DNA of 64,000 nt from Gammaproteobacteria bacterium (GTDB lineage: Bacteria; Pseudomonadota; Gammaproteobacteria; Steroidobacterales; Steroidobacteraceae), in the NCBI GenBank assembly GCA_010027845.1, contig RGUL01000004.1, positions 1,810 to 65,809 of the forward strand, given 5' to 3'. Of the stretch, positions 16,462-64,000 are shown one piece after another (within the stretch, counting starts at the first letter, position 1; the number at the start of each line of letters is the position of its first letter). The notes under the pieces are model-generated. The model made no database searches. It was given only the letters and a program-made list of their open reading frames with translations, and was not told where the DNA came from. A program made the translations under genes and the position numbers.

Positions 16462-17175
16462 GTTCGGTAGCGCGTGGAACGCATGCCGCAAACTTTCCCC
16501 CCAACTACTTCGAATCATTGCGAAATACTCGTCTTCGGGGCCGATACTGCGGTGGAGGTGCACCCGTAAGGCATCGCGCTTCAAACATAGTAGGTCGAGG
16601 GGCAAGCCCACTGAAATATTTGATCGAATCGTCGAATCCATGGAAATCAGCGAGCACTTGATCGCCTCTGCGAGACTCGACGAGCGTGTCAGCACACGAT
16701 CGAGAATAGGCTTACCGTACTTCGATTCACCGATCTGAAAATACGGCGTCTCGTTGGTCGCTTCGATGAAATTACCGGCGGCGTAGACACTGAAAAGCCG
16801 GGGCTCCGCGCCACTAATCTGCCCGCCCAAAATGAACGAGGCATTGAATTCTATACCGTGATTTTTGAACGCTTCGGCGTCGCGCTCGTGAACTTTACGA
16901 ATCGCCGCTCCGACCAATGCAGCAGCATCGAACATCGAACCGACGGTGTACAGACTCGGTCTTTCGGGATGTCGGATTTCTTCGTCGAGCTCGTGAACCA
17001 CTGCCTGCGACACCGCGAGATTGCCAGCCGTCAGCAATACTAAGGCGCGATCGTTCGGCCGCTCGAAGACGTGCATCTTACGAAACGTGTTGATGTGGTC
17101 GACACCGGCATTGGTACGGGAGTCCGATAGGAACACCATTCCGGTGTCGAGTAAGGTTGCGATGCAGTAAGTCAT
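16450..17175 (-). CDS. Proteasome-type peptidase (Anbu, ancestral beta-subunit homologue)
   Basis: Start moved to ATG 17175, which gives MTYCIATLLDTGMVFLSDSRTN with Thr directly after Met (Ntn nucleophile). Last gene of the ATP-grasp/alpha-E/transglutaminase operon. Confidence 0.75.
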   Translation of the reverse strand: MTYCIATLLDTGMVFLSDSRTNAGVDHINTFRKMHVFERPNDRALVLLTAGNLAVSQAVVHELDEEIRHPERPSLYTVGSMFDAAALVGAAIRKVHERDAEAFKNHGIEFNASFILGGQISGAEPRLFSVYAAGNFIEATNETPYFQIGESKYGKPILDRVLTRSSSLAEAIKCSLISMDSTIRSNISVGLPLDLLCLKRDALRVHLHRSIGPEDEYFAMIRSSWGESLRHAFHALPNLPI

Positions 17176-17200
17176 GACCGATTTTACTGTGCACCAGTCT

Positions 17201-18049
17201 CTATTGTTGAGCGTCGCGCTGCTGCAGCAACCGCGGACGTGGCGCGACCGTCCGTCGCGGGCCGGTGCCCTCGAACACCTCCACCTTGGCTGACATCGAT
17301 TCCGCGCCGCCCCCACGCCGCACCCCACGCACCGGGCAAGCGTCGAGGTAGTCACGGCCGACCGCGAGACGGCAATGTTGTGGACCGGCTAGCGTTCCGT
17401 TCGTGACGTCCACCGAACACCAATGCTGCGCCTGCTCGAGCCATACGTCGACCCAGGCGTGGCTGGCGACGTGATCGTCGCGGTCGGTTAATAGGTAGCC
17501 GCTGACGTATCGCGCAGGCAGACCGAGCGCGCGACTACACGCGAGCATCACGTGTGCGTGATCCTGGCAGACACCGCGGCCCAACGCGAAGGCATGCGCT
17601 GCCGTATCGAACACCGCCGTTGCACCGGCCACGTAGTCGAGCGTCTCACGGATTCGCAACGCGAGCTTAATTACGTCGTCTTGATCGAACCCCGAACGGC
17701 GCGATCCGGCGAACGCCCTCAACGCCTCGTCGGCTCGCGTCAGTACGGTCTCCGGAAGATAGACGAGCGGCGAAAGTGAGTGCGCCGCTAACGCGGCCGC
17801 GGTCGGTTCCGTCTCGACGACGCCAGCGACCAATATTTGAATTTCGTCATGCGGCTCGTCGATCGTCAACAGGTGCATGACGTTGCCGTGGGCATCGACT
17901 TGTTGAGCCTGCTTACCGGGCGCCGAGAGAGTCCAATTCTGTACCCGTTGACCGGCGTCGGCACGGGGCGTCAAACGTAGGCTTTGCACGCTGTGCCGTA
18001 CCGGGCGGTCGTAGCGATAGAGAGTTTCGTGTCGGATTTGCAGCAACAT
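17201..18049 (-). CDS. Transglutaminase-family protein
   Basis: Start moved to ATG 18049 (MLLQIRHETLYRYDRPV, the typical N-terminus). Catalytic GRGVCQDHAH motif. The longer ORF-track N-terminus overlaps the alpha-E gene. Confidence 0.85.
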   Translation of the reverse strand: MLLQIRHETLYRYDRPVRHSVQSLRLTPRADAGQRVQNWTLSAPGKQAQQVDAHGNVMHLLTIDEPHDEIQILVAGVVETEPTAAALAAHSLSPLVYLPETVLTRADEALRAFAGSRRSGFDQDDVIKLALRIRETLDYVAGATAVFDTAAHAFALGRGVCQDHAHVMLACSRALGLPARYVSGYLLTDRDDHVASHAWVDVWLEQAQHWCSVDVTNGTLAGPQHCRLAVGRDYLDACPVRGVRRGGGAESMSAKVEVFEGTGPRRTVAPRPRLLQQRDAQQ

Positions 18050-18051
18050 GG

Positions 18052-19002
18052 TCAGACCGTCGCCGCCGACACCAAGAAATCCTCGCCGATCCGCGCACCG
18101 AGATCGCTCGTTTTGTTCAAGAACTCCTCTAAGTACCGACCCAGCCCCGACGTCAACACCTCGTCGATGCGACCGTATTGCAAACTCGCCTGGATCTCCC
18201 CGGCGCGTCGCAGTGTTTCGACCGATCGGACGTTTGCAACCTTCACCAATATTGCGTGTACGCGACTCATGCTGTGATGCAGTGAACGTGGCATGCCATC
18301 GCGCAACATCAACAACTCCGCAACACGCCGCGGCGTGATCACGTCGCGATACACCTTTCGATAGATCTCGAAAGCCGACACCGAACGCAACAACGCGCTC
18401 CACTCGTAATAGTCTGCGGCGTCATCATATTTTGATGCATCGTCGGCGAACGAGGCGAAATGAGCATCTAAGATGCGCGCCGTGTTGTCGGCGCGCTCCA
18501 GGTAGGTGCCGAGTCGAGTGAAGTCGAGCGCATCGTCATGCAGCATCGTACCCTCGATCACGCCACGCGCGAGATGCGAGCGAAATTTCACCCACTCGAA
18601 AAAATTCGTAATTCCCTGCACCGAAACCGAATCGCGTCTAAACCCGCGGATTTCGAGCCAGGTCGCATTGAGCGTTTCCCAAGTCTCTGACGTTAGCGTA
18701 CCGCGCACGGCATGGGCATTTTGCCGCGCGCGGTCTAAGCATTGTTCGATGCTGCCCGGGTTGGCGGGCTCGAAACTGATCCAGTCGATCGCTGCCGGTT
18801 GGCTTACGGATTGATGAGTCAATAGAAATGGCTGTAGCTGCCCAACGATCGCGAGCGTCGACGTCCAACGACGACGGACGGCTTCGTCCTCTTGACGCAA
18901 CAACGTCATACGGCAGTTGACGTCTAGCATGCGAGCGAGGTTTTCAGCGCGCTCGGTATAACGAGCCATCCAATATAGATGGTCTGCGGTGCGGCTCAGC
19001 AT
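18052..19002 (-). CDS. Alpha-E domain protein
   Basis: MLSRTADHLYWMARYTERAENLARMLDV is the canonical alpha-E N-terminus. Start at 19002 (or 19014). Confidence 0.85.
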   Translation of the reverse strand: MLSRTADHLYWMARYTERAENLARMLDVNCRMTLLRQEDEAVRRRWTSTLAIVGQLQPFLLTHQSVSQPAAIDWISFEPANPGSIEQCLDRARQNAHAVRGTLTSETWETLNATWLEIRGFRRDSVSVQGITNFFEWVKFRSHLARGVIEGTMLHDDALDFTRLGTYLERADNTARILDAHFASFADDASKYDDAADYYEWSALLRSVSAFEIYRKVYRDVITPRRVAELLMLRDGMPRSLHHSMSRVHAILVKVANVRSVETLRRAGEIQASLQYGRIDEVLTSGLGRYLEEFLNKTSDLGARIGEDFLVSAATV

Positions 19003-20414
19003 GTCAGCACCCAAGTATCTTTTGTGCCACCACCTTGCGATGAGTTGACCACCAATGATCCATCGCGCAGCGCGACGCGAGTCAAGCCGCCCGGCACCAT
19101 CGACACGTCACGGCCGGAGAGCACGAACGGACGCAGGTCGATATGTCGAGGCGCTAATCCGCTTTCGACAAAGGTTGGGCAAGCCGACAGCGCGAGGGTT
19201 GGCTGTGCGATATAACGAGCGGGATCGGTGATTATTTTGTTACGAAATGATTCGATTTCGACACGACTCGCGCGCGGTCCGATCAACATGCCATAGCCAC
19301 CCGCACCGTGCACTTCTTTGACGACGAGTTCGTCGAGATGTGACAAGACGTATTGCAGATCTTTGGGTCGACTCAAAATCCACGTCGGGACGTTTTGTAA
19401 TAACGGCTCCTCGCCGAGATAGAAGCGAATCATCTCGGGCACATAAGGATAGGTTGATTTATCGTCCGCGATGCCGCTGCCGATCGCATTCGAAATGGTG
19501 ACTCTCCCGGCTCGATAGGCCGTCAATAATCCGGGCACCCCGAGCATCGATTCGGGCTTGAATGCCAGCGGATCGAGATAGTCGTCGTCGATTCGCCGAT
19601 AGATGACGTCGACGCGGCGCGGGCCTTGCGTGGTGCGCATATAGACGACTTCATCATCGACGAATAGGTCCTGCCCTTCGACGAGTTCGATACCCATTTG
19701 CTGCGCGAGAAACGCATGCTCGAAATACGCGCTATTGCTCGCGCCAGGGGTCAGCAACACAACCGTTGGTTCACGCACACCGGCTGGGGCGACGCTACGC
19801 AAAGTGTCGAGCAGAAGATCCGGGTAATGTTCGACCGGCGCTACCGGATGCTCCGCAAACACCTCCGGAAACAGGCGCATCATAGCCTTGCGATCCTCGA
19901 GCATGTAGGACACACCCGAAGGCACGCGCAGATTATCCTCGAGGACGTAGTACTCCCCCGCGCCCGCGCGTACCAGATCGATTCCGGCGATTTGCGCGTA
20001 GACATCCATCGGCACGTCGATGCCTTGCATCTCCGGTCGATATTGCGCATTACATAAAACTTGCTCCGGGGGAATTTTGCCGGCGCGCAGAATTTGTTGA
20101 TCGTGATAGACGTCGTGCAAAAATGCATTGAGCGCAGTGACGCGCTGCCAAAGACCACGCTCGATCAAGTTCCACTCGGCCACGGGAATGATGCGCGGCA
20201 CGATGTCGAAGGGGATCAGTCGCTCCGTCCCGATCTCATCGCCATATACGGCGAACGTTATTCCGGCGCGACGGAACAGCGTGTCAGCTTCCGCGAGTTT
20301 CTCGCGCACGCGATCCGCGGGAAGTGCGGCCAACCATCTGGAGTAACGCGCGTAGTGTGCGCGGACGGCACCATCCGCAGCAGTCATTTCGTCAAAAATT
20401 TGCGCTGCCGGCAT
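18996..20414 (-). CDS. Circularly permuted type-2 ATP-grasp protein
   Basis: 472 aa, with conserved blocks YYVLEDNLRVPSGVSY and VVKEVHGAGGYGMLIGP. First gene of the Anbu operon. Confidence 0.85.
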   Translation of the reverse strand: MPAAQIFDEMTAADGAVRAHYARYSRWLAALPADRVREKLAEADTLFRRAGITFAVYGDEIGTERLIPFDIVPRIIPVAEWNLIERGLWQRVTALNAFLHDVYHDQQILRAGKIPPEQVLCNAQYRPEMQGIDVPMDVYAQIAGIDLVRAGAGEYYVLEDNLRVPSGVSYMLEDRKAMMRLFPEVFAEHPVAPVEHYPDLLLDTLRSVAPAGVREPTVVLLTPGASNSAYFEHAFLAQQMGIELVEGQDLFVDDEVVYMRTTQGPRRVDVIYRRIDDDYLDPLAFKPESMLGVPGLLTAYRAGRVTISNAIGSGIADDKSTYPYVPEMIRFYLGEEPLLQNVPTWILSRPKDLQYVLSHLDELVVKEVHGAGGYGMLIGPRASRVEIESFRNKIITDPARYIAQPTLALSACPTFVESGLAPRHIDLRPFVLSGRDVSMVPGGLTRVALRDGSLVVNSSQGGGTKDTWVLTC

Positions 20415-21645: not shown

Positions 21646-22155
21646 ATGCTCCGCCTTGCCGTTCCAGTGAACGCCGCCGCTTTGAAAGTCGCCGCTTTGA
21701 GCCTCGCAGTGCTTTGCGGCGCGCGCCTGATGCTCGGACCGCTCGCCGCAGCAGCACCCGCCACCGGACTGCGCATCGAGTCGCCCATGGTGCGCGAAAC
21801 GCTGCCGGGACAAACTACCGGCAGCGCTTACCTCGTCATTCACAACGAGAGCGACGTCGCCAGACGTTTACTCGGTGCTGCGACGCCAGCAGCCCGCGAA
21901 ATACAGATTCACGACATGTCGCTGCGCGATGGCATCATGCGTATGCGACAAGTCACCGACGGTGTCGCAATTCCGGCGCGCGGTAAAGTGGCCTTCGTCG
22001 CCGGCGGCCTGCATCTGATGTTGGTCGGACTGCAGGCACCCCTCAGCGCCGGAAGCGACGTACCGCTCACCTTGCGATTCGATCGTGGTGGCGAACTCAC
22101 CATACCGATACGGATCGTGTCGATCGACGATACGACGTCGCAACCAAAGAAATGA
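21646..22155 (+). CDS. Periplasmic copper chaperone PCu(A)C
   Basis: Start moved to ATG 21646 (signal peptide). AYLVIHN, IQIHDM...MRMRQV and GGLHLML (HxM) Cu(I)-binding pattern. Confidence 0.75.
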   Translation: MLRLAVPVNAAALKVAALSLAVLCGARLMLGPLAAAAPATGLRIESPMVRETLPGQTTGSAYLVIHNESDVARRLLGAATPAAREIQIHDMSLRDGIMRMRQVTDGVAIPARGKVAFVAGGLHLMLVGLQAPLSAGSDVPLTLRFDRGGELTIPIRIVSIDDTTSQPKK

Positions 22156-22724
22156 TACGGCTGCTCGTTTTGATCTTCACCGCGCTACTCGGGGCTTGTA
22201 GTGCGCCGGCGCCGTTCAACGCCTCCGAGGTGCCGAAACTCGACTATGGTCACGGCGTCGAGTTGCGCGATACCGAAGGCAAGGTTCATCGCATCGAAGA
22301 ATTCCGCGGTCGCGTGACATTGCTGTTCTTCGGTTTCACGCGCTGCCCGGACGTGTGCCCGACGATGCTGTTGCGACTCAAAAAGGTGCGCGACGCCGTT
22401 GGGCCGCTCGCTTCGAACGTACAAGTCGTTTTACTCAGCGTTGATCCGGAGCGTGACACGCCGGACATCCTGCGGGCCTACGTTAAACATTTCGATCCGT
22501 CGTTCATCGCATTACGGCCCGAACCCGAGCGACTCGAACAAACGCTGAAGGCATTCCGCGCGATCGCAATTCGGGTGCCGACCGCAGACGGCAGCGATTA
22601 CACCGTCGATCACTCGGCGACGATTTTCGTCTACGACCGCACCGGTGCCTTGCGCTTGATCGCGCAGCCGCAACTGGAGATCGATAAGCTCGCCGCGGAC
22701 GTCGCGCGCCTCGTTCGCGAGTGA
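22152..22724 (+). CDS. SCO1/SenC-family copper-binding thiol:disulfide protein
   Basis: CPDVCP (CxxxC), conserved DHSATIFVYD His, lipoprotein-type leader LLGAC. ATGA overlap with PCuAC. Confidence 0.85.
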   Translation: MIRLLVLIFTALLGACSAPAPFNASEVPKLDYGHGVELRDTEGKVHRIEEFRGRVTLLFFGFTRCPDVCPTMLLRLKKVRDAVGPLASNVQVVLLSVDPERDTPDILRAYVKHFDPSFIALRPEPERLEQTLKAFRAIAIRVPTADGSDYTVDHSATIFVYDRTGALRLIAQPQLEIDKLAADVARLVRE

Positions 22725-22731
22725 GCGTTCG

Positions 22732-25428
22732 TTAGGATTTTTTTCGTCGGCGGGCGAACCACCAGCCGATCGAGCCCGCCACCGCAAACCCGACTGCCGG
22801 CCAGAGCAACGCCGGCAAAATCACACGTCGCAGTGCGTTCTGTGAAACCTGCGCACGCGGTTCATATCCCGCTGGTAACGGCAAAATTTTGTCGTCGCGC
22901 TCGAATTTTTGATAAGCGGCGCGCAAGCGCTCGAAGTCTTGCGGTCTCGTCCGACGCAAGTCGCGGGTCTCACCAGGATCCGCAGCGATGTCGAACAATT
23001 GCCAATTGCCGCTACCCACGGGCGGCATATTGCGCACCAACTTCAAATCACCGGCGAACAGCGCCGAATTTCCCGCCAGCTCGAACCCCACCGTCTCTTG
23101 CGGTCCGCGCGCCGATGCCGAAGCGCCACGTAACACCGGTACGAGGCTTTTACCCGAAATGGGTTCGATGCTGGGCGAAGGGTCGCCGACGGCGACGCCC
23201 GCGAGATCGAGTAGCGTCGGCGCGATATCCGTGACATGCGTGAAACTTTTGACGATGCGCCCACCGTGCTCGCCTGCCGGGAGCAAGCCAGGGCCGCGTA
23301 TCACGAGCGGCACCCTTAACGCGCCCTCACCCGCATAAAACTTATGAGTCGCGAGTGGTGCATTCGCCGCGCTCACCCAATTGGGGCCAATGGTGGCATA
23401 GGCGCCGGCACTGCCCATGCGATCGACCGCGCGGGTGTACTGCGTCATCAGCCACATACGCCCACTCAAATACTCGTAAGGATCGGAAGGCTCGGCTCCG
23501 TTATCGGACAAAAATACGAAAACGGTGTCTTGATCTTGACCGAGTGCACGGATCGTTTCGCGCAGGCGGCCGATTTCCGCGTCCATCGTCTCGGCCATCG
23601 CCGCATAAACTTCCATGCGTCGCGCGTCGTAGCGTCGTCGTTGCGGTGATAGCGAGTTCCACTCCTCGATACCGGGCCACTGCGCTGGTGCGGTGTTTGC
23701 CGGCAGCAGACCGAGCTCGATCGCCCGCTCGCGACGTCGATCGCGTACCACCTGCCATCCGGCATCGTACCTTCCATGCTGCCGCGCCATCGCCTCTGCG
23801 GGGGCCTGCAGCGGAATGTGATTCGCTTGAAATGCGAGGTACAACATGAACGGCGGCGGCTCACCCGCAGCGGTCTTGCGGATGGACCAATCGTTACGCA
23901 AGTAGTCGATCGCGCGATCGACGTAGTAGCGCGACGAATAGAATTCTTTGGGCATCTGCGTCGACTTGCCATCTTCGAACCAAGCGACACGATCGGTCAG
24001 CGCTAAATATCTTTGATCGGTACGCCAGTTATCCGAGCCGCTGTCACCTTGAACGATTGAGCGATCAAAGCCACGCGCCGGCGGCAGGTTGTACTCTTCC
24101 TTACCGACGTGCCATTTACCCACCGCATACGTGCGATAGCCGTGCTGCTGCAGCCGCGAGCTCATAGTCACGACGTTGCGATCGAGCACGGTCAGATAGC
24201 CGGGTTTACCCTCAAGTTGCGGTGGCACGGATTCGTGCATCGCACCGACGCCGGTACGATGACTATTGACACCAGTGAGCAGCATCGCGCGTGTCGGCGA
24301 GCATTCGCTCGCCACGTGAAAGTTAGCGAAGCGCGTGCCTTGGCTCGCTAACGTGTCGATGTTCGGCGTACGAATTTCGCTGCCGAACGCACCGATGTCG
24401 GTGTAGCCGAAATCGTCTGCGACGATCACCACGATGTTCGGCCGTCGCTGCGGGATATCTTTGTTTGCGGTCGCGGGGATCGAGCGCACGGTCCGAAAGC
24501 CGACGTGTGACGTGCCGAGCGAGGGATCTGCGGGCTGACGCGAACCGCTGCGATAGCGCTCGCAAAAGTCCGACGAACAAAGATGCGAACCACCTTTGAT
24601 GACGTGTTTGCCGGCTTTTTCTGGATCCGATCGTTTAGCGTCCGCGGCGGTCGCCGGTGCGACCGCGTCCGAATACCAATCGGTGGTCCACTCCCAAACG
24701 TTCCCGACCATGTCGTACAAGCCGCGCGCGTTGGCGGGGAAACAACCGGACGGAGCAACGCCGCGATAGCCGTCGTCCCCTTGGTCGAGCACCGGAAAAC
24801 TACCCTGCCACGTATTGGCCAGCCAACGACCCTGTGGGTCACGTCGCTCGGACTCGGGATCGTCGCTGGCCGCAACGTCGCCGCGCGCAGCCCACTCCCA
24901 CTCGAGTTCGGTAGGCAAGCGACGATCGCGCCACTTTGCATAGGCGGCCGCGTCTTCGAACGCGACGGCGGTTACCGGCTCGTCGTCGCGCGCGATCGAC
25001 CCGGCGCCGAGCGGGTTGCGCCAATTCGCCGAGGACTCGAGTCGCCAAGCACTCTGCCGGCGATCGAACACCGCCGCGCCCTGCGCCTTCCCGTCCGCGC
25101 CGATGCGCTCGGCGACGGTGACGTAGCCGGTAGCTTTGACGAAGGCCGCAAATTGCCCGTGCGTCACCTCGGTCGCGTCGATGTCGAAATCGTTAACTAC
25201 GCCGACACCGCCGACCCGCTCCTCGGGCCAGCGCGTCACGTCGCCACGATTCAGCCGACCACCGCGTACCGTAACCGTGCGACCGATCGCAGCGCTGCCG
25301 AGACACGCTGCGGATATCTTCGAAGTCGCCGTCGTCGCGCCGTTCGGCGGCAATGCCGCACGCTCGCAACCACTCAAAAAAATGCCGGCGCCGACGAGCG
25401 CGACCAGCAGAGTCCTCCGTTCGATCAC
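22732..25428 (-). CDS. Fusion protein: lipoprotein leader + formylglycine-generating enzyme (FGE/SUMF1) domain + type I (FGly) sulfatase-family hydrolase + C-terminal TM anchor
   Basis: GTG start in a GTGA overlap with the upstream stop. Lipobox FLSGC. FGE blocks RLPTELEWEWAARG, GNVWEWTTDWY and GGSHLCSSDFCERYRSGSRQ. Sulfatase blocks NIVVIVADDFGYTD and ASECSPTRAMLLTG. Tail LPALLWPAVGFAVAGSIGWWFARRRKKS. Confidence 0.85.
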   Translation of the reverse strand: MIERRTLLVALVGAGIFLSGCERAALPPNGATTATSKISAACLGSAAIGRTVTVRGGRLNRGDVTRWPEERVGGVGVVNDFDIDATEVTHGQFAAFVKATGYVTVAERIGADGKAQGAAVFDRRQSAWRLESSANWRNPLGAGSIARDDEPVTAVAFEDAAAYAKWRDRRLPTELEWEWAARGDVAASDDPESERRDPQGRWLANTWQGSFPVLDQGDDGYRGVAPSGCFPANARGLYDMVGNVWEWTTDWYSDAVAPATAADAKRSDPEKAGKHVIKGGSHLCSSDFCERYRSGSRQPADPSLGTSHVGFRTVRSIPATANKDIPQRRPNIVVIVADDFGYTDIGAFGSEIRTPNIDTLASQGTRFANFHVASECSPTRAMLLTGVNSHRTGVGAMHESVPPQLEGKPGYLTVLDRNVVTMSSRLQQHGYRTYAVGKWHVGKEEYNLPPARGFDRSIVQGDSGSDNWRTDQRYLALTDRVAWFEDGKSTQMPKEFYSSRYYVDRAIDYLRNDWSIRKTAAGEPPPFMLYLAFQANHIPLQAPAEAMARQHGRYDAGWQVVRDRRRERAIELGLLPANTAPAQWPGIEEWNSLSPQRRRYDARRMEVYAAMAETMDAEIGRLRETIRALGQDQDTVFVFLSDNGAEPSDPYEYLSGRMWLMTQYTRAVDRMGSAGAYATIGPNWVSAANAPLATHKFYAGEGALRVPLVIRGPGLLPAGEHGGRIVKSFTHVTDIAPTLLDLAGVAVGDPSPSIEPISGKSLVPVLRGASASARGPQETVGFELAGNSALFAGDLKLVRNMPPVGSGNWQLFDIAADPGETRDLRRTRPQDFERLRAAYQKFERDDKILPLPAGYEPRAQVSQNALRRVILPALLWPAVGFAVAGSIGWWFARRRKKS

Positions 25429-26528
25429 AACACGAGGCGCCGGTCCGCTTCGTGCAAACGTCCGGCAAGCTGCTGCAACAGTTCGCGCGTTTCGGTCGGG
25501 TGCTCGGCGATCACGTGTGCGAAATTGTCGATCGTTACCTTACGCAGCGATGCCGCTCGGGTCACGACCACCGATGCCGACCGCGGCAGTTGTAACAGCA
25601 GACCCATCTCACCCACCCACTCGCCCGGACCCAGTTTTGCGAGGACTAGCTCGCTGCCGTCGGCATTGCGCTTACGAACTTCGAGTTCGCCGCGCTCAAC
25701 GACGTACGCGCGATCGGCAATGTCACCTTCGTGCAAGACCACCGCACCGACCGGAAATAAAGTATGGCTACAGTCGGTGAAGATGCAGCGATAGCGCTCG
25801 GTGTGGAACAACTTCGCGCATCCGGCGCGCGCGCGAGCACCGAACGTCCAGCCATGTACGAAAACGGCGAGTACCGCGCCGGCAACCGGTCCGACGCAAT
25901 ACAACCAAAATCCGTCGAATACGGACGTCAACAACGCCGGCGCGAAGCTGCGCGCGGGATTTAGGCTCGTGCCCGAGACCGGCGCTTCCACGAACACCAG
26001 CAGCGCGACTAAAAGACCAGCGAAATACGGTGTGCGCGCGGCATGACGCGGTTCGTTGACGCAGTAGAGGATCGTGAACATCAGCATGAAGGTGATGACA
26101 AATTCCGCGCCGAGTGCGATCCCGGTCGAATATTCGGCGCCAGGCGTGGTCAAACCGAGTTGCACGCTTTGCGCTGCAGCGCCGCCGACGAGCGCGACGA
26201 TCATGACGCCCAATACCGCACCGGACATTTGCGCGATGCAGTAGGCGACCGCGTCCGGCCCCGTCACCTGACCTTTGACCCAAAACGCCAATGTGACAGC
26301 CGGGTTCAAGTGCCCGCCGCTGCGTTGTCCGAGCGGCGAAAGCACGACCGCCGTGCCACCGCCTGCGAACAACAAGCCCGTGCATAAGCGACGCAGTGGC
26401 TCGTTCGGAATCAACTCGCGCATGATGCTACCGTCGGACCACATGACGGTGACGGCGCCGATGCCCACGATCATCATGATCGCGGTGCCGAGAAACTCTG
26501 CAAAATATTCTGGTAGGTGTGATTTCAC
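25425..26528 (-). CDS. MIP-family channel (aquaporin) fused to a C-terminal cyclic-nucleotide-binding domain
   Basis: EYFAEFLGTAIMM, HLNPAVT (26298-26306) and SLNPARS (25953-25961). The C-terminal CNB has the phosphate-binding cassette GEMGLLLQLPRSAS. GTG 26528 is preferred over ATG 26648, which would overlap the upstream gene by 70 nt. Confidence 0.8.
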   Translation of the reverse strand: MKSHLPEYFAEFLGTAIMMIVGIGAVTVMWSDGSIMRELIPNEPLRRLCTGLLFAGGGTAVVLSPLGQRSGGHLNPAVTLAFWVKGQVTGPDAVAYCIAQMSGAVLGVMIVALVGGAAAQSVQLGLTTPGAEYSTGIALGAEFVITFMLMFTILYCVNEPRHAARTPYFAGLLVALLVFVEAPVSGTSLNPARSFAPALLTSVFDGFWLYCVGPVAGAVLAVFVHGWTFGARARAGCAKLFHTERYRCIFTDCSHTLFPVGAVVLHEGDIADRAYVVERGELEVRKRNADGSELVLAKLGPGEWVGEMGLLLQLPRSASVVVTRAASLRKVTIDNFAHVIAEHPTETRELLQQLAGRLHEADRRLVL

Positions 26529-26578
26529 GAGTATTCGTTTCCGATCAAGCCGAACTGACCCCGAAACGAATATACCGG

Positions 26579-28378
26579 TCAGCGCGCGACTTTGGCAGGC
26601 CCCGTTATTTTTTGAGGCGACACCCCCACTGGCGCATTCACGGTCCATTCATGATCGATTTGACCGTTACGCCGGGACGCGTTCTCGTCTTTCGGCAACC
26701 AAGCTCGAACGTACTGCGAGGTCACTTTGCCTGGCGTGACGGTCACACGCAGATGTCCGGAGCTGCTCACGATCGTCCCGGCGACATAGTGATAGTCGCT
26801 GGCGATGTTTGCACCACTATTGTTGTTCTTAGCGCTCGGTTGCGGAACGGTTTGATAGACGACACCGTCGAGTTCTTGGCGGACGTACACATGATCGTGT
26901 CCTTTGAATACTGCGGTGACTTTATATTTGACCAACAGGTCGTGGATCGGCGCCGTCCAACCCGGGCGCTTTTGCGCAAAGCCCGCCGAGCCGTCCGAAT
27001 TCTTACCGCCCCACTCGTAAAACGGCGCCGCCTCGATACCTCCGCGCATCGCGCCGTCGAGTCCGCCGACGATGTTGTGCAGGAACACGAATTTGAACGT
27101 CGCCGTACTTTTCGACAGCGTCTCGACCAGCCATTGATACTGGCGCGCACCGAGCGTGAAGTTCCAAGCATCCGCACCGGGCTTCGTGGCGGTGTTCCAA
27201 AAGGGATCGAGCACGATGAATTGGGCGTCACCCCAGTTCCAGGAGTACCACGCGACACGATTACCGGCGACCGGATCGACGAACGAGTCGCCCGTGTAAA
27301 ACGCATTCGGCGTCGGAATCGGAAAAAACTCGAGTCGTGCTTGCGATGCCCACATCGGCAAACTCTGCGCCGAGCCGTCGACCAGCCAGCCGAGCTCGGC
27401 GTCGTGGTTACCGTTCACCAAAAATAGTGGCGCAGAATGGGTCAACAATCCGAAGTTGGCGCGCTCGTAACGGTATCGCGCATCGAGCGTCGCTTTGCTC
27501 GTTGGTTGCGCGATGACCGCCGTGAGCGGCTCGGCATGCTTCTCAGTCATGAAGGTATCGCCGAGATCGACATGAAAATCCGGTTGATCGGCGAGTATGT
27601 TCGCGAGCGTGCGTTTGTACTGATCAACGTCGGAATTTTCGTCCATGTGCGAGTCGGCCTGCACCGTGAACGTGAAACTTTGACCCTTCGGTCGCGCGGT
27701 TTGAAACCGGTAATTCTTAGAAACAGTATCGGTTGTGCTACCGGTCTGTCGCAGAATCACGCGATATTGATATGCGGTGTTCGAACGTAATGCGTTCAAG
27801 GTCACCTCGAGAACTTTACCGGCGACGAGATTTTGCGTTGCAGACTGGGTTTCGCTCGCATCGGTCGCGGCTTTGTAGGCGATCGTCAGTGTGCCGCTAC
27901 GATCCACCGAATACAGTTTCAGCCGCATCGACGTGTCGGTGGGCGCACCGAGGACGATATCCCCGGGGAAATCGGCCGCGACGCTGACGGCGGCAGCTGG
28001 CGTGGCGGTCGCTGCGCTTGACGCGGCGCTGTTGCCGATCCGATTGGTCGCGATAACGGAGCAGGAATAGGCGGTGCCGTTCGTCAAACCACCAACGGTG
28101 ATCGGACTCGCCGCGCCCGTGCCGGTCGCGGTCGTAGAACCGGCCGCGCAACTCGCGGTGTAGCCGGTGATCGCCGCACCACCATCGCTCGACGGCGCGG
28201 TGAAACTCAGGGTGATCTTGCCATCGCCGGCGGCAGCGGCGACGGATGATGGTGCGCCCGGAACCGTTGCGGCGGGCGTCACCGGCGTCGGCGCGACCGG
28301 TGTCGACGCTGCGCCACCCCCGCCCCCACACGCCGCCAACGATGCGATGAGCAGACTAGGCCAAAGAATTTTGTGCAT
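26579..28378 (-). CDS. Lipoprotein: Fn3 domain + purple-acid-phosphatase-like metallophosphoesterase
   Basis: Start moved to ATG 28378 (MHKILWPSLLIASLAACGGGGG lipobox). Fn3 block ITLSFTAPSSDGGAAITGYTASC. Metallophosphoesterase motifs ADSH, LGDTF, VNGNHD and KGHDHVY. Confidence 0.7.
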   Translation of the reverse strand: MHKILWPSLLIASLAACGGGGGAASTPVAPTPVTPAATVPGAPSSVAAAAGDGKITLSFTAPSSDGGAAITGYTASCAAGSTTATGTGAASPITVGGLTNGTAYSCSVIATNRIGNSAASSAATATPAAAVSVAADFPGDIVLGAPTDTSMRLKLYSVDRSGTLTIAYKAATDASETQSATQNLVAGKVLEVTLNALRSNTAYQYRVILRQTGSTTDTVSKNYRFQTARPKGQSFTFTVQADSHMDENSDVDQYKRTLANILADQPDFHVDLGDTFMTEKHAEPLTAVIAQPTSKATLDARYRYERANFGLLTHSAPLFLVNGNHDAELGWLVDGSAQSLPMWASQARLEFFPIPTPNAFYTGDSFVDPVAGNRVAWYSWNWGDAQFIVLDPFWNTATKPGADAWNFTLGARQYQWLVETLSKSTATFKFVFLHNIVGGLDGAMRGGIEAAPFYEWGGKNSDGSAGFAQKRPGWTAPIHDLLVKYKVTAVFKGHDHVYVRQELDGVVYQTVPQPSAKNNNSGANIASDYHYVAGTIVSSSGHLRVTVTPGKVTSQYVRAWLPKDENASRRNGQIDHEWTVNAPVGVSPQKITGPAKVAR

Positions 28379-28389
28379 TGCGTGCGATC

Positions 28390-29871
28390 TCAAGGCAAAG
28401 AATACGAAAATGCGACGGTGCCCGACACCTTTCCGGGGCCTTCGTCGACCGGCAACCACACCCGCACGTATTCGACTTTGATGCCGGTCGGCGAAACCGT
28501 GACGCGGGTGTAGCCCGAGTTCGGATATTTGTCACCGCCGGTGTAGGCATCGTCATTTCGAAATGCGTATGCCGGGTCAGCCGGCTCGGGGAGCGTTTGA
28601 TAAGTGACGCCGTCGAGCGCCTCGCGCACCCAAATATGATCGTGTCCTTGGAAGAAAATGTTCACCTTGTTTGCGACGAGCAAACGATGAATCGGTAAAT
28701 TCCACGTCGGGCGTCGGGTCGCGAACTCGTCGACACCAGCGGCCGACTTCCCGCCCCACTCCCAAAGATTCGCGATCTCGATACCACCGCGACCGGTGCC
28801 TAGCACGTGGTGCGCAAAGACGAACTTGTATTTCGCCTTGCTCGTTTCGAGCGTCGTCTTCAGCCACTGATATTGACTGTCACCGTGCGTGACTTCCCAG
28901 GGGCTCGAACGTTTCGAACCGCCGCCGAAAACGTTGTCGACTGGCACCGGTGAGGACCAATACGGATCGATCACCACGAACAACGCGTCGCCCCAGGTCC
29001 AAGAATAGTAGTTGCGCAGTTGGCCGATGAAGGCGACCGGCTCGCTATTGCCGCCGTAAAACCGATCCGGTGCTGGTTGCGAGTACAAAGAATTCCGTGC
29101 ATTTTGCGCCCACACGGCCACGTTGTTCGGTGTGCCGTCGAGCAGATACCGTGCGGCCTGTTCGTGATTACCATTGACAAGAAATAGCGAAGCGCGTCGC
29201 GCGACCGTCGAAAAATATGGTCGCTGCAACGTGTAGCGGCCACGCACCTGCGCCTCGTTGATAGTGGTGGCGTCTAATGTATCGACGCTGAAATCGTCGC
29301 CCATCGCGATGTAGAAATCGGGTCGGTCCGCGGCCACTGCATCGAGCGTACGTTGGTAGAGCGTCGGATCGAATTCGGACTTCAAGCGCTCCGGATGCGA
29401 ATCACCCTGCAACGCGAACATGAAAGTCGAACCGGCCGGTCGCGCAGTTTGGAATTGCAGTTCATCGGTGGTCTGCGTCGTCGAGCCGTTCGCAGGCACG
29501 AGACTCACGCGGTAGTAGTAACGCGTATTAGCCGCCAAGTTCACCACGGCAACTTCGAGCGGTTTGTCTGCCGACAAATTAGCTGTCGCGGTTTGGGTGT
29601 CGAGTCGACCGGGCACCGTGCCGTAGGCGACGGTGACGGCCCCCGATTCGGTGGTCGAATAAAGATTCAGCTTGATTGAATCGCTGGTCGGCGAGGCGAG
29701 TACGATGTCGCCTTTGAAGGTGGTCGTCGCAGTGGTGGTCGGCGGCGTGGGTGTCGACGGGGCGGTCGGTGTGTTAGCAGCCGAAGACGGCGCCGACGAT
29801 CCACCACCACCGCAAGAAATTATCATCGCCGCACCGATCGCTACGACAATGTTGCGCAGTTGAACCGTCAA
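28390..29871 (-). CDS. Lipoprotein: purple-acid-phosphatase-like metallophosphoesterase (paralogue of 26579..28378, without Fn3)
   Basis: TTG start with GGAG 9 nt upstream. Lipobox IISCGGGG. Motifs GDSH, MGDDF, VNGNHE, FAHH and QGHDHIW. Confidence 0.7.
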   Translation of the reverse strand: MTVQLRNIVVAIGAAMIISCGGGGSSAPSSAANTPTAPSTPTPPTTTATTTFKGDIVLASPTSDSIKLNLYSTTESGAVTVAYGTVPGRLDTQTATANLSADKPLEVAVVNLAANTRYYYRVSLVPANGSTTQTTDELQFQTARPAGSTFMFALQGDSHPERLKSEFDPTLYQRTLDAVAADRPDFYIAMGDDFSVDTLDATTINEAQVRGRYTLQRPYFSTVARRASLFLVNGNHEQAARYLLDGTPNNVAVWAQNARNSLYSQPAPDRFYGGNSEPVAFIGQLRNYYSWTWGDALFVVIDPYWSSPVPVDNVFGGGSKRSSPWEVTHGDSQYQWLKTTLETSKAKYKFVFAHHVLGTGRGGIEIANLWEWGGKSAAGVDEFATRRPTWNLPIHRLLVANKVNIFFQGHDHIWVREALDGVTYQTLPEPADPAYAFRNDDAYTGGDKYPNSGYTRVTVSPTGIKVEYVRVWLPVDEGPGKVSGTVAFSYSLP

Positions 29872-29999
29872 TCTTTTTCTCCGAGTCGAGTGTCGCCGTG
29901 TTCGTATTGTGTTGAAATCGTTGCGCGATACCCGTCACGAAGTAGTAAAGTTTTGCAAAGAATCCTGTTGCCACCGTCTCAGAAGGCGATCATTCGTTC

Positions 30000-31850
30000 A
30001 TGAAAGTTTTCCTCCAGCGTGCGCTGAGTTCAGCGCTCTTGATGGCCACTCTGTCGAGTTGCGGCGGTGGCGGCGGCAGTGGCGCCACGACGCCTACGAC
30101 CCCTACGACGCCCACTCCGCCGGCCACGGTGAGCACACCCGGCGCACCGACCGGCGTCACTGCGACCGTCGGTAATGCGACGCTGACGATCGCCTTCACG
30201 GCACCGAGTTCGAACGGCGGTGCGACGATCACGGGCTATACGGTCACTTGCACCGCCGGCGCGAACTCTAAAACCGCCACCGGCAGCGCAAGTCCGATCA
30301 GCGTGACGGGACTCACGAACGGCACCAATTACAGTTGCTCGGTCACCGCGACGAATTCCGCAGGTACCGGCGCCGCATCCACGAGCGTCACCGCGACGCC
30401 GGCCGCGCCTACCTCGAGCTTCGCGTTGACGAGTACAGCCGGGACGGCAGGTAGCGCGATGGCCGCGGACTACACATGTGATGGCACGGGCTCCTCGCCA
30501 CAACTATCTTGGACCAACGCGCCAGCTGGGACCAAAGAATTCGCTCTACTGATGACCACGCTGCCGGGCGACGGCACGACCAAGTGGAACTGGGTGCTGT
30601 ACGGCATCCCCGCAGCGACCAAGTCGCTCAACAAAGATACCTTCGGTATCGGCACGACCGGCGTCGGCAGCGATGGTCCGTTTGCCGGCTACCAGCCACC
30701 CTGCTCCCAAGGCCCGGGGGCGAAAACGTACACGTTTACGCTGTATGCGCTCTCTGCGACGCCCGATTTGTCTGCCGCCGGCTCGACCGTCAACGGCTCG
30801 ACGATCACGAGCGCGATCGCCGGGATTACTTTGGGTTCGGCCACGCTCGATCTCAACTACACGCGTCCGACGAATGCCACCGGTTCATCGACCGCCTGCG
30901 GCTATGTACGTAGTTCGCTCGGTGGTTCGACCACCGGCAACGCGAGCGTCGCCTGCGATGCTAACTACGCTTACGTCAGCTCGAACAGTCTCGCCACCCA
31001 CACGATGATGAATGGCATCACCGCCACCAACCTGCAGGTCCCGACCGCGCAAAATTTCTTAGGCGCCAACGGTTGGAAGATTCCGCTCGCACCGGCGATC
31101 GCCGCGAGCACGGTTTCCGCGGTCGACGGACCGATCGGTATCGCCGTGAACGGCGTGTTGATTTTCAATCCTTGCAAACAAGGTGGTTGCCAGAATGGTG
31201 ACACCAAGGTGCTCGGTGAACTCGACGTCTGTAACGGCCATGCGGGTCGAGCCGACGATTATCACTACCACGCTGCACCGGTGTGCATGATGCAAACCAA
31301 AGCGGCCAACTATTGGGATACGCACCCGGTCGGCTGGGCGCTCGATGGTTATGCGATCTATGGTTATAACGACGCCGACGGTAAGGTCGCGGCACGCGAC
31401 ACGGTGTGCGGCGGCAACACCAATGCCGTCGTCAACGGTCCGAGCGGCTACGCCTACCACGTCACCGACGCATCGCCGTACGTGCTCGCCTGCTTTCGCG
31501 GCACGCCGAGCCCGGACCTGGCGAACCAAAGCAGCAAATTCTCGCCGATGCGTCAGCCCCCCGTGCAGCCTTTCAAAGTTTCGAACATGACCTTGGCGAC
31601 CGACGCCAAAGATGGCTATCAAGTGCTGCAGTTCACCTCGGCGATCAATTTCACGACTAACGAAACGGGCTCCGACACTTATTCGAACGCACCCGGCACT
31701 TATCGCATTCGCTACAAGCAACTCGGCGGCGCGGAGCTCACCAACGCGCTCACACAATCCGGTAACGGGAATAAAACGGCGTGCTGGGCGTTCCAATTCA
31801 CCGATTCGGCAGGCGCGACGACCCAACCGAACATCACGTATTGCCGTTGA
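30000..31850 (+). CDS. Lipoprotein: Fn3 + PEBP (YbhB/YbcL-type) + YHYH-motif domain
   Basis: Lipobox LSSCGGGGG. Fn3 block LTIAFTAPSSNGGATITGYTVTC. PEBP-like DYTCDG...SPQLSWTNAP..EFALLM...YTFTLYAL. GHAGRADDYHYHAAP with YHYH at 31260-31271. Confidence 0.65.
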   Translation: MKVFLQRALSSALLMATLSSCGGGGGSGATTPTTPTTPTPPATVSTPGAPTGVTATVGNATLTIAFTAPSSNGGATITGYTVTCTAGANSKTATGSASPISVTGLTNGTNYSCSVTATNSAGTGAASTSVTATPAAPTSSFALTSTAGTAGSAMAADYTCDGTGSSPQLSWTNAPAGTKEFALLMTTLPGDGTTKWNWVLYGIPAATKSLNKDTFGIGTTGVGSDGPFAGYQPPCSQGPGAKTYTFTLYALSATPDLSAAGSTVNGSTITSAIAGITLGSATLDLNYTRPTNATGSSTACGYVRSSLGGSTTGNASVACDANYAYVSSNSLATHTMMNGITATNLQVPTAQNFLGANGWKIPLAPAIAASTVSAVDGPIGIAVNGVLIFNPCKQGGCQNGDTKVLGELDVCNGHAGRADDYHYHAAPVCMMQTKAANYWDTHPVGWALDGYAIYGYNDADGKVAARDTVCGGNTNAVVNGPSGYAYHVTDASPYVLACFRGTPSPDLANQSSKFSPMRQPPVQPFKVSNMTLATDAKDGYQVLQFTSAINFTTNETGSDTYSNAPGTYRIRYKQLGGAELTNALTQSGNGNKTACWAFQFTDSAGATTQPNITYCR

Positions 31851-31878
31851 GCACCAACCTATCTTTGGTCGATCTGCG

Positions 31879-32439
31879 ATGTTGAGAGTTTTCGCACTCG
31901 CGACCGTCTCGCTCTTCATGGGTGCAATGGCACTCGCGCACGAACTCCCCGATGATCGGGTGACGATCGTGCAGCGCGAACCGACGCATCTCTCGATTAC
32001 GTTTTACGTCGACGAAGTCGGGCTTCTACAACGCCTGATCGCCCCGAACAGTTCGCGGGCGGAGTTCTTGCTCGCCTGCGCCGCGCTGCCGCAGGCGATG
32101 CTCGCAGGCAGGTTGCAAGCCGCGCGCAATGCATTTGAGTCGGAGGTCGCGATCCGCGACCCTGATCGTCGCAGTTTGGCAATCTCAGCGTTCCGATGGC
32201 CGACGATCATCGACACGCAAAGACTGCTAAAGGAAAGCGCGCTTACTCTGCTGGCAACCGGCACCGATCATGAGAGAGGCGTCCTGACCGAGATTAACGC
32301 TGACGCGACGGCTGGTAAGTTGCTTAATTCGATCACCTTCGTCAAGCCGAAGTCGTTACCAAGGCTTACGGTCGTATCCTATCGCCCGTTACAACAGCAA
32401 ATGAACGACGAGATCAGCGAAATCAAAATCACGTTTTAA
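31879..32439 (+). CDS. Hypothetical secreted protein
   Basis: Start moved to ATG 31879 (signal peptide MLRVFALATVSLFMGAMALA). No recognisable motif. Confidence 0.4.
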   Translation: MLRVFALATVSLFMGAMALAHELPDDRVTIVQREPTHLSITFYVDEVGLLQRLIAPNSSRAEFLLACAALPQAMLAGRLQAARNAFESEVAIRDPDRRSLAISAFRWPTIIDTQRLLKESALTLLATGTDHERGVLTEINADATAGKLLNSITFVKPKSLPRLTVVSYRPLQQQMNDEISEIKITF

Positions 32440-44485: not shown

Positions 44486-44503
44486 ATGACATGGTGGTGA
44501 CAT
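44486..44503 (-). promoter_or_regulatory. Pho box upstream of phoD
   Basis: Minus strand reads ATGTCAC-cacc-ATGTCAT (7+4+7), then exactly 10 nt, then GATACT (44475-44470). GGAG lies 8 nt before the phoD ATG. This is the same layout as E. coli PhoB-activated promoters. Confidence 0.5.
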
Positions 44504-44509
44504 CTCGAA

Positions 44510-44554
44510 CTGTCACGCAAGCTAAATCTCCGTGTCACAACCCGCGCATAACAT
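44510..44554 (+). promoter_or_regulatory. Pho-box-like array plus -10 element upstream of the TonB receptor operon
   Basis: CTGTCAC-gcaa-GCTAAAT-ctcc-GTGTCAC with an 11-bp phase, then 10 nt, then TAACAT (44549-44554). Confidence 0.4.
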
Positions 44555-44584
44555 GCCGGCCCTCTGATGGGAGGGTCAACTTCA

Positions 44585-63488: not shown

Positions 63489-64000
63489 TCAGAACTTATA
63501 ACGCGCAGTCAAACCGAACGAGCGACGGTCACCCATCAGCGAGTTCGGGATGAAGTCCGGCAGGCCACTGGTCTGCACGGGCGTCGCGTTGGAGTTCGGC
63601 TGCGTGATGCCGGTGGCGACGTAGACCTTGTCGGTGAGGTTCTTCACCCACAATTCGACGTCGAGCTTGTTGCCCTGCGAGAAACCGACTCGCGCGTTGG
63701 CGAGCGAGTAACCGTCGTACCACTCTAGCGAGAGCGAGCGCGGGAACTGCTTGGACTGGTTACGGCCATCGAGACGCGCGAACCAGGTCCAATCACCCGT
63801 CAAACGATCTTCGTACTGCACGTACGCGTTCAACGTCTGCTTGGACGCACGCGTGAGCTGGTTGCCCGCGACGTTGGTCGAGCAGATCGGCGGCACGCCG
63901 CAGTAACGCGTGTTGCTGAGGTCGATCGCGCCGTTCCCGTACTTCGGATCGGTGAACGCCAGGCCCAAGCCCGCGGTCCACTGCTCGCTCAAGCGACCAT
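63489..64000 (-). CDS. TonB-dependent receptor, C-terminal part (5' end outside the window)
   Basis: The frame is open to the window edge. Beta-barrel pattern ending in the terminal SFGLTARYKF. Confidence 0.8.
   Translation of the reverse strand, partial: GRLSEQWTAGLGLAFTDPKYGNGAIDLSNTRYCGVPPICSTNVAGNQLTRASKQTLNAYVQYEDRLTGDWTWFARLDGRNQSKQFPRSLSLEWYDGYSLANARVGFSQGNKLDVELWVKNLTDKVYVATGITQPNSNATPVQTSGLPDFIPNSLMGDRRSFGLTARYKF

Follow-up and report, generated by a model that had tools for sequence, protein, structure and literature searches.

We analysed a window of 64,000 nucleotides (nt) of contig RGUL01000004.1, from a member of the Steroidobacteraceae (positions below are window positions unless a contig is named), and focused on four minus-strand genes which an original prediction, made from the sequence alone, had described as a candidate envelope system. 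These genes encode, in the direction of transcription, two lipoproteins resembling purple acid phosphatases (PAP_A and PAP_B), a major intrinsic protein (MIP) channel fused to a cyclic nucleotide-binding domain (CNBD), and a fusion of a formylglycine-generating enzyme (FGE) with a sulfatase (Table 1). The positions of the four open reading frames (ORFs) proved accurate, as did their operon-like spacing on one strand (11 nt between PAP_A and PAP_B, 50 nt between PAP_B and the channel gene and a 4-nt overlap between the channel and fusion genes), the 128 nt of non-coding DNA upstream of PAP_A, and the description of the flanks: the copper chaperone genes PCuAC and SCO1 converge on the sulfatase, and a gene for an fn3-PEBP-YHYH lipoprotein runs divergently from PAP_A, the intergenic region presumably holding the promoters of both. 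The GTG start of the channel gene is backed by the family alignment. All of the domain calls, including the two domain fusions, were upheld by Pfam and NCBIfam, and the predicted membrane tethering agrees with lipoboxes readable by eye in the translations (IISC in PAP_A, LAAC in PAP_B, as well as LSGC and LSSC) and with a C-terminal transmembrane (TM) helix with an RRRKKS tail that can be read directly in the sequence. What did not hold up is the claim that the four genes form one conserved system.

Contigs of relatives encoding channel homologues were fetched and compared with the window (L-numbers denote these contigs or loci, and identities of relatives are those of the channel protein unless stated otherwise), conservation of the gene order across relatives having been set beforehand as the check on that claim. 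The arrangement, including the 898-amino acid (aa) fusion and the SCO1/PCuAC pair, is kept only in L011, L012 and L096, where the channel is 97–100% identical; the four-gene order is lost at both 89% and 82–85% identity. At 89% (L008 and L010) the MIP-CNBD gene is followed by separate genes for a 316-aa FGE and a 603-aa sulfatase and then by SCO1 and PCuAC; PAP-like genes are absent, and the upstream position is held instead by a gene for a 308-aa protein without a Pfam match. At 82–85% (L093–L097) the fn3-PBP-YHYH gene lies divergent from PAP_A–PAP_B, which are followed by seven unrelated genes on both strands and then by a gene for a 473-aa protein, MIP-CNBD and PAP2; the PAP pair is 6.7 kb from the channel gene, and FGE and sulfatase are absent. 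A GTDB scan with the sulfatase-domain profile yielded 80 loci (49–72% identity, mostly Steroidobacteraceae and Burkholderiales), 13 of which contain an FGE; within 10 kb of the sulfatase orthologue, none has the channel gene, any PAP-like gene, SCO1 or PCuAC.

The seam in the cluster is located by comparison with L008. On one side of the L008 channel gene, genes for a TonB receptor, an SDR, an NAD-binding protein, ureidoglycolate lyase and NmrA are collinear with window positions 63998–60558; on the other side, genes for ADH, an amino-acid permease and an M19 dipeptidase are collinear with 21529–13732. Since L008 is collinear on both sides of 26579–60446, the window carries ~33.9 kb between NmrA and the channel gene that L008 lacks at this position, and the PAP_B/channel junction is a synteny breakpoint relative to L008, with a phosphorus-stress segment on one side and the conserved backbone on the other. 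These comparisons lend no support to four genes acting as one integrated system. Instead, the genes were brought together recently, where the island meets the backbone; we favour, with moderate confidence, a reading in which three modules, each with its own history, have come to lie side by side in this lineage in an operon-like arrangement. The host is probably a freshwater gammaproteobacterium resembling Steroidobacteraceae.

Several observations weigh against this reading. With spacings of 11, 50 and −4 nt and no convincing terminator, co-transcription may give the genes a new local functional link. In L093, a second lineage, less than 7 kb separates the channel gene from the PAP module upstream of it, and the linkage of these neighbourhoods may thus predate the adjacency of the genes. 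The 4-nt MIP/FGE overlap persists at 89% identity, a sign that these genes at least may be translationally coupled, and the 34-kb difference is either an insertion here or a deletion in L008. Promoter and terminator scans returned hits at chance level (4 sigma-70 promoter hits versus 2.9 in shuffled sequence; 12 terminator hits versus 11.7), with no sigma-70 consensus match in the PAP_A/fn3-PEBP-YHYH intergenic region and one weak promoter-like match at 26569–26598, overlapping the PAP_B/channel spacer; the scans therefore neither argue against co-transcription nor prove it, and the four genes may share a transcript in this bacterium.

Immediately before the channel start codon, the window and L011 have a conserved 9-bp stem, AUUCGUUUC...GAAACGAAU (window 26530–26570, minus strand; L011:1545–1590). 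The hairpin is no more stable than shuffled sequences (z −0.5 and −1.6) and has no T-run, and for these reasons it was rejected as a terminator.

Table 1. Genes, domains and sequence elements of the locus in window coordinates
Feature	Position	Strand	Remarks
PCuAC copper chaperone	21646-22155	+	likely start ATG 21646; end overlaps SCO1 start by 4 nt
SCO1/SenC copper chaperone	22152-22724	+	converges on fusion gene, 7-nt gap
FGE-sulfatase fusion gene	22732-25428	-	898 aa
C-terminal TM anchor of fusion	22735-22824	-	read in sequence
PAS-type sulfatase domain	22891-24447	-	CSPTR 24289-24303
Fusion linker	24448-24483	-	12 residues
FGE domain	24484-25281	-	catalytic CSSDFC 24562-24579
Fusion lipobox	25366-25380	-	read in sequence
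MIP-CNBD channel gene	25425-26528	-	367 aa, counted from GTG at 26528
cNMP phosphate-binding cassette GEMGLLLQLPRSAS	25572-25613	-	in channel gene
Cys-His-Cys-Cys linker of channel	25770-25823		residues 236-253
Second NPA motif	25953-25961		residues 190-192
First NPA motif	26298-26306		residues 75-77
PAP_B/channel spacer	26529-26578	-	50 nt
PAP_B	26579-28378	-	599 aa, counted from ATG at 28378
PAP_A	28390-29871	-	493 aa
Divergent intergenic region PAP_A/fn3-PEBP-YHYH	29872-29999	.	128 nt
fn3-PEBP-YHYH lipoprotein gene	30000-31850	+	domains fn3-PBP-YHYH; divergent from PAP_A
186-aa secreted protein gene	31879-32439	+	follows fn3-PEBP-YHYH gene
PhoD	42813-44432	-	311.8 bits
Pho-box-like direct repeat	44486-44502		TGTCAC-CACCA-TGTCAT
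Further TGTCAC copies	44511-44517, 44533-44539		just downstream of repeat
TonB receptor gene	44567-47032	+	divergent from PhoD

The ~34-kb segment begins with PAP_B and PAP_A, which therefore lie at its edge, followed by the PEBP-YHYH gene and the gene for the 186-aa protein. It also encodes a true PhoD, PhnX (309 bits, cut-off 220), a TIGR03364 FAD oxidoreductase and a phosphonate ABC transporter, together with a phytase-like protein, a small metallophosphoesterase, a Y_phosphatase3 protein, five TonB-dependent receptors, two GT4 glycosyltransferases and an OlsF-like bifunctional acyltransferase (381 bits, under the cut-off of 620). Neither an integrase nor a tRNA was seen at the ends of the segment. 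Its gene content marks the segment as a neighbourhood for scavenging and sparing phosphorus, of which PAP_A and PAP_B form part. We scanned for Pho-box-like repeats of the E. coli type (CTGTCAT-N4-CTGTCAT, up to 3 mismatches) and of a local variant (TGTCAY-N5-TGTCAY). Overall counts are at or below chance, and the only perfect copy, a direct repeat of the form TGTCAC-N5-TGTCAT, lies in the promoter region from which PhoD and a TonB receptor gene diverge; neither pattern was found, at up to 2–3 mismatches, in the intergenic region between PAP_A and the PEBP-YHYH gene.

Both phosphoesterases combine the Pfam domains Pur_ac_phosph_N and Metallophos, preceded in PAP_B by an fn3 domain. Metallophos scores 32.8 and 28.6 bits in the two proteins (cut-off 21.5), Pur_ac_phosph_N reaches 26 and 29 bits, just under the gathering cut-off of 30, and the PhoD profile gives PAP_B 22.9 bits, short of its cut-off of 27, with no match to PAP_A. 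In PAP_A the lipobox is followed by a linker rich in Pro and Thr, then by an N-terminal beta-sandwich of the PAP type and last by the Metallophos domain, whose motifs are GDSH, GDDFS, GNHE and GHDH; the seven metal ligands D157, H159, D192, N235, H354, H410 and H412 are all invariant in 32 sequences. With all five motifs present, PAP_A and PAP_B are assigned to the calcineurin-like metallophosphoesterase superfamily. The label 'PAP-like' was right for the fold and wrong for the defining tyrosine ligand: the domain arrangement is that of purple acid phosphatases, while motif I reads GDSH, not GDxG, and motif II (G191-D192-D-F194-S195, with F invariant and S nearly invariant) has no GDxxY tyrosine. 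Since a sequence search of the PDB gave no match for PAP_A at E 0.01, fold comparison was used. With Foldseek E-values of 3e-18 to 5e-17, TM-scores of 0.54–0.57 and ~14–15% identity, the folds closest to the AF2 model of PAP_A (pLDDT 80.9) are those of lupin PPD1 PAP, kidney bean PAP and B. subtilis PhoD.

PAP_B is a paralogue of PAP_A (about 40–41% identical), and A-type and B-type genes are paired, in either order, in all five independent contexts examined. In three of these five the pair is accompanied by a PEBP-YHYH protein (61–83% identical) and a secreted protein of ~190 aa: the fn3-PEBP-YHYH gene adjoins the PAP pair in L093–95, L178/179 and L177, and the product of the gene after it (L093:7451–8026, L178:5596–6192 and L177:5797–6381) is 29–42% identical to the 186-aa protein of the window. 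This ~190-aa protein has HELxxDR after its signal peptide and ends in ...VVSYRP...F; its 186-aa representative in the window matches nothing in Pfam or NCBIfam. In L177, the PAP/PEBP module adjoins ppk and ppx. Given this recurrence of the A/B pair, PEBP-YHYH and the ~190-aa protein elsewhere, the conserved unit at the locus is best delimited as 26579–32439, which overlaps only half of the four-gene cluster. As for the size of the PAP family, 5,973 of 8,000 scored candidates fall at E ≤ 1e-5, typically with 60–79% identity; the homologues come mostly from freshwater metagenomes and are named only 'metallophosphoesterase' or 'hypothetical'. We found no description of the PAP A/B, PEBP-YHYH and 190-aa module in the literature, an absence that is weak evidence given incomplete coverage. 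We propose that PAP_A and PAP_B are anciently duplicated lipoprotein binuclear metallophosphoesterases of the PAP/PhoD fold, functionally tied to PEBP-YHYH and the ~190-aa protein, and that the pair, possibly as an A/B heteromer, would hydrolyse organophosphate esters outside the cytoplasm and release phosphate.

PAP-like genes and an FGE-fold domain lie together a second time, in an unrelated setting, at L180:13872–17698, where a PKD-bearing PAP B/A pair lies beside genes for a 1141-aa PKD/arylsulfotransferase protein and for a protein of more than 1250 aa that carries PKD repeats and an FGE-sulfatase-type domain.

At the other end of the cluster, Pfam detects an FGE-sulfatase domain (E 1.1e-63, 215.7 bits) and a Sulfatase domain (E 3.4e-57) in the fusion protein. 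C284 and C289 of the FGE domain align with the Cys pairs of T. curvata and human FGE; on the basis of its fold and of this copper-binding pair before RYR, we assign the domain as an aerobic formylglycine-generating enzyme. The sulfatase domain aligns with residues 3–520 of P. aeruginosa PAS (1HDH; E 1.6e-104), and its DD, K-W-H, H, DN and K catalytic and metal residues are invariant in 31 orthologues, all of which identifies it as a type I (formylglycine (FGly)-dependent, S1) sulfatase. CSPTRAMLLTG, beginning at residue 376 of the fusion, is the only CxPxR...LTG signature in the window; the intact catalytic Cys pair of the FGE and the single CSPTR target beside it were thus called correctly.

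The two domains occur together only in the two closest protein clusters (92% and 87% identical), other orthologues being stand-alone sulfatases of ~600 aa. In L008, the FGE has its own lipobox and the sulfatase its own signal peptide, along with the same C-terminal TM anchor and Arg-rich tail; both partners were therefore exported before they fused. In the lineage of the window, the stop codon and the ~25-residue signal peptide have been replaced in frame by the 12-residue linker, and the fusion is, as its junction reads, a recent in-frame joining of two adjacent genes. A sequencing frameshift was rejected as an explanation, as three independent assemblies and two protein clusters share the in-frame junction. 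A literature search turned up nothing relevant on an FGE-sulfatase fusion, although coverage was incomplete, which makes the absence weak evidence. The fusion protein would leave the cytoplasm by Sec export, its FGE domain would convert Cys376 of the emerging sulfatase domain to FGly in the periplasm, either in cis or in trans, and the matured sulfatase would cleave sulfate esters on the periplasmic side of the inner membrane.

The 4-nt FGE/sulfatase overlap and the converging SCO1–PCuAC pair are kept in the 89% and 97–100% lineages, with SCO1 next to the sulfatase gene in L008, L010, L011 and L012. FGE is a copper enzyme, as cited in PMC11500405 through its reference 40. The SCO1/PCuAC adjacency fits this copper need, but it is seen only among close relatives and may reflect shared ancestry. 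A general link between copper chaperones and FGE was rejected, as it finds no support outside close relatives (neither SCO1 nor PCuAC is present in any of the 13 FGE-containing sulfatase loci).

Elsewhere, anchored-sulfatase orthologues of Burkholderiales and Steroidobacteraceae have a recurring context of their own (L013–L092; e.g. L074:8212–9525, L081:13085–14188 and L062:1308–1952), consisting of a DsbA-like 437-aa protein, an unannotated 429-aa protein, an MBL-fold hydrolase, an alpha/beta hydrolase, an SDR, an acyl-CoA dehydrogenase and TetR. This context weakly hints at a lipophilic substrate. Further out on the same flank of the window, an Anbu-type operon (16450–20414, minus strand; circularly permuted ATP-grasp, Alpha-E, transglutaminase-like protein and proteasome-like subunit) sits between the amino-acid permease and ADH genes, which adjoin each other in L008 and L011.

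The channel, finally, joins a MIP domain (Pfam E 3.8e-45, 154.8 bits) to a cNMP_binding domain (E 1.2e-18, 67.3 bits, cut-off 27.5). With its six-TM fold and two NPA half-helices it is a member of the major intrinsic protein family. Its pore filter, A55/V178/T187/R193, was placed by the N−20, N−12, N−3, N+3 rule, counted from the Asn of the nearer NPA motif, and the placement was confirmed by ungapped profile alignment to AQP4; all four residues are invariant in a 43-sequence alignment. The linker between pore and sensor, GCAKLxHTERYRCIFxxC, has three Cys and one His that are invariant in 43 sequences, coincides with a dip in AF2 confidence (pLDDT 65–74) and looks like a metal-binding or redox site. 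As had been predicted, an intact cyclic nucleotide monophosphate (cNMP)-binding cassette is carried on the MIP pore: in the family alignment A318 never varies and G306, E307 and R316 hardly do, and the beta-roll profile together with this cassette supports assignment as a cNMP-binding domain. The protein belongs neither with AqpZ (filter A/V/T/R versus F/H/T/R; NF003838 80.9 bits versus a cut-off of 256) nor with GlpF (A/V/T/R versus W/G/F/R; the only aquaglyceroporin model matched, Gla, gives 37 bits versus 400). In Foldseek comparisons, its AF2 model matches AqpM, PIP2 and AQP4, with AqpM as the best match (33–34% identity, TM-score 0.82–0.84 on the target); no PDB chain in this comparison covers a MIP pore and a CNBD together.

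At 90% identity, more than 120 protein clusters from Pseudomonadota, Acidobacteriota and Bdellovibrionota combine MIP with CNBD; among the best 120, a single truncated protein is the only one lacking this pair of domains, and lengths are mostly 350–393 aa, most commonly 367 aa. The family is found in Nevskia, other Gammaproteobacteria, Acidobacteriota, Bryobacteraceae and Bdellovibrionota, and is annotated only as 'aquaporin' or 'aquaporin Z'. A phmmer search with the linker and CNBD against a representative library of 1.84 billion proteins retrieved mainly multi-CNBD proteins and a handful of channel-family clusters at 50% identity (P0368, P0372, P0380, P0393 and P0425), and because the former dominate, the size of the family cannot be obtained from that search. 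By neighbour clustering, a gene for a cytoplasmic GH63/MGH1-like hydrolase of ~890 aa neighbours the channel gene in 43 of 95 loci, in two gene orders: co-directional and downstream in a freshwater clade at 60–65% identity, divergent and upstream in a soil clade at 52–56%. Often near the channel gene, too, are a glucose-1-dehydrogenase-like SDR, GlgA, a double-CNBD flavin/Fe-S oxidoreductase and GAF-PAS class III cyclases. This neighbourhood, seen in the majority of other lineages (L001, L003, L099–L131 and others, e.g. L117:11271–13946), looks like a conserved cAMP-linked carbohydrate or osmolyte module without a described function; none of these partner genes (GH63-like, SDR, GlgA, oxidoreductase and cyclase) is present in the window.

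Two further neighbourhoods deserve mention. In the 82–85% relative (the contig of P0004; also L093/L097), genes for PAP2, an ABC transporter with a CNBD, a CNBD protein without other domains and an Ion_trans channel come after the channel gene, so that cNMP sensors are unusually dense there. In L001, a row of five short ORFs (44–53 aa; L001:3711–4507) adjoins a C39-peptidase ABC exporter and its membrane-fusion partner, in what looks like a bacteriocin-like cluster ~5.5 kb before the channel gene.

According to a 2019 review, no gating mechanism has been established for prokaryotic aquaporins (PMC6912568). We found no description of an aquaporin with a CNBD or cNMP architecture, again with literature coverage incomplete enough to make this weak evidence. 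An AqpM/NIP-like pore with a small hydrophobic filter suggests permeation of small neutral solutes rather than of water only. A cyclic nucleotide, probably cAMP given the RSA cassette, would bind the CNBD and change the permeability of the channel, with the Cys/His linker acting as a structural metal site or as a redox site. Our fullest proposal is that of a widespread MIP family gated directly by cNMP, in which the CHCC metal or redox site couples sensor to pore, and whose gene has, in this lineage, joined that of a self-maturing, copper-dependent sulfatase of the periplasm in one operon with coupled translation. We put this forward tentatively, as a possibility with the balance somewhat against it; if it is true, the channel family would be the first ligand-gated MIP known in prokaryotes.

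How do the alternatives to three juxtaposed modules fare? The original prediction saw one envelope machine, in which two tethered phosphoesterases and a self-maturing sulfatase remove the phosphate or sulfate group of a small ester in the cell's exterior and the cNMP-gated MIP imports the neutral product, e.g. glycerol. Four genes on one strand with gaps of 11, 50 and −4 nt, three hydrolases that are all predicted to be exported and tethered, and a filter compatible with small neutral solutes speak for such a machine, and yet we regard it as improbable: its gene order is lost beyond assemblies with a 97–100% identical channel, its partner genes are found at none of the 80 sulfatase-orthologue loci, a synteny breakpoint runs through its PAP_B/channel junction, and two of its parts keep other company elsewhere, the PAP pair with PEBP-YHYH and the 190-aa protein and the channel family with a cytoplasmic GH63-like enzyme. 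Because that conserved partner of the channel is cytoplasmic, the idea that a hydrolysis product enters by way of the channel is still speculative.

A smaller, clade-specific unit is a less demanding idea, doubtful though we consider it. Here MIP-CNBD, FGE and sulfatase would work together, SCO1 and PCuAC would metallate the FGE, and the channel would pass the desulfated alcohol or a linked small neutral molecule under cNMP control. The 4-nt MIP/FGE and FGE/sulfatase overlaps and the converging chaperone pair, all kept in the 89% and 97–100% lineages, agree with it, as do the copper dependence of FGE and the predicted export of both FGE and sulfatase in this clade; however, the block is confined to close relatives, where shared ancestry explains it equally well, SCO1 or PCuAC is found at none of the 13 FGE-containing and none of the 80 sulfatase loci, the channel adjoins PAP2 instead at 82–85% identity, and convergent genes are not co-transcribed. 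To a third possibility we give the least credence of all: that the whole stretch, fusion protein included, belongs to the phosphorus-starvation response and that its PAS-type FGly hydrolase is mainly a promiscuous phosphodiesterase or phosphonate-monoesterase, not a sulfatase. Promiscuous hydrolysis of phosphoesters is a known property of PAS, phosphorus-scavenging genes abound in the window, and the fusion is weakly similar to the phosphoric/sulfuric ester hydrolase PehA (75 bits). That score is nevertheless far under the cut-off of 900, the best match by far is the arylsulfatase PAS, no Pho-box-like repeat lies near these genes, and the fusion gene is on the backbone side of the breakpoint, with counterparts in L008, which lacks the phosphorus segment there.

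Under the reading that we favour, a juxtaposition of three modules, the locus illustrates that tight spacing and a plausible story do not suffice to define a system: synteny splits the cluster into three modules, each of which is a lead. These are an unstudied family of CNBD-fused MIPs, a lineage-specific, self-contained FGE-sulfatase, and a conserved, uncharacterised module in which two metallophosphoesterases go with PEBP-YHYH and a 190-aa protein. Of the three, the channel family most deserves study, being compact, conserved and easy to express, and it would provide prokaryotic aquaporins with a direct gating mechanism. The natural fusion of two already exported proteins would place FGly formation after export, in a Gram-negative periplasm, and offers a ready-made scaffold for a self-activating sulfatase. 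The PAP A/B, PEBP-YHYH and 190-aa module, abundant in freshwater metagenomes, is a candidate for an unrecognised route of organic-phosphorus mineralisation.

Each of the modules has recognisable relatives among known systems. With its PAP pair amid PhoD, PhnX and the phosphonate ABC transporter, the phytase-like protein, TonB receptors, the OlsF-like acyltransferase and GT4 enzymes, the segment resembles Pho-regulon neighbourhoods for phosphorus scavenging and lipid remodelling, from which it differs in that no Pho-box-like repeat was found between PAP_A and PEBP-YHYH. Plant PPD1, kidney bean PAP and B. subtilis PhoD share with PAP_A an N-terminal fn3-like beta-sandwich, a binuclear metallophosphoesterase domain and an extracytoplasmic, phosphate-scavenging context. 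The GDxxY tyrosine of purple acid phosphatases is the ligand that gives the Fe(III)-tyrosinate chromophore; in PAP_A it is replaced (D192-D-F-S195), and motif I has a His where these enzymes have GDxG. Unlike PAPs and PhoD, moreover, PAP_A and PAP_B always occur as an A/B paralogue pair, with PEBP-YHYH. The fusion aligns over its full sulfatase length with P. aeruginosa AtsA (PAS), with which it has CSPTR and the metal and catalytic residues in common, and it matches aerobic FGE (T. curvata, S. coelicolor and human SUMF1) at E ~1e-54 with both copper-binding cysteines. PAS itself has no signal peptide or anchor. The fusion, unlike both PAS and FGE, is a single 898-aa polypeptide with lipoprotein-signal export and a C-terminal TM anchor, whereas in its relatives the FGE is a separate protein.

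The channel can be set beside two groups. With AqpM and the NIPs it shares the six-helix MIP fold, two NPA motifs and the replacement of His at filter position H5 by a hydrophobic residue (Ile in AqpM, Val or Ile in NIPs, Val here); it differs from them in its own invariant filter combination, A/V/T/R, and in a cytoplasmic C-terminal extension of ~130 residues with the CHCC motif and the CNBD. With channels of the MloK1/SthK type it shares a C-terminal cytoplasmic CNBD, a GE...RSA cassette and a tetrameric membrane pore, a likeness that suggests, by analogy, ligand control of permeation. MIP-CNBD is nevertheless not in that family: in place of an Ion_trans potassium-channel pore it has a MIP with four separate monomer pores for neutral solutes, and in place of the C-linker it has a Cys-His-Cys-Cys linker.

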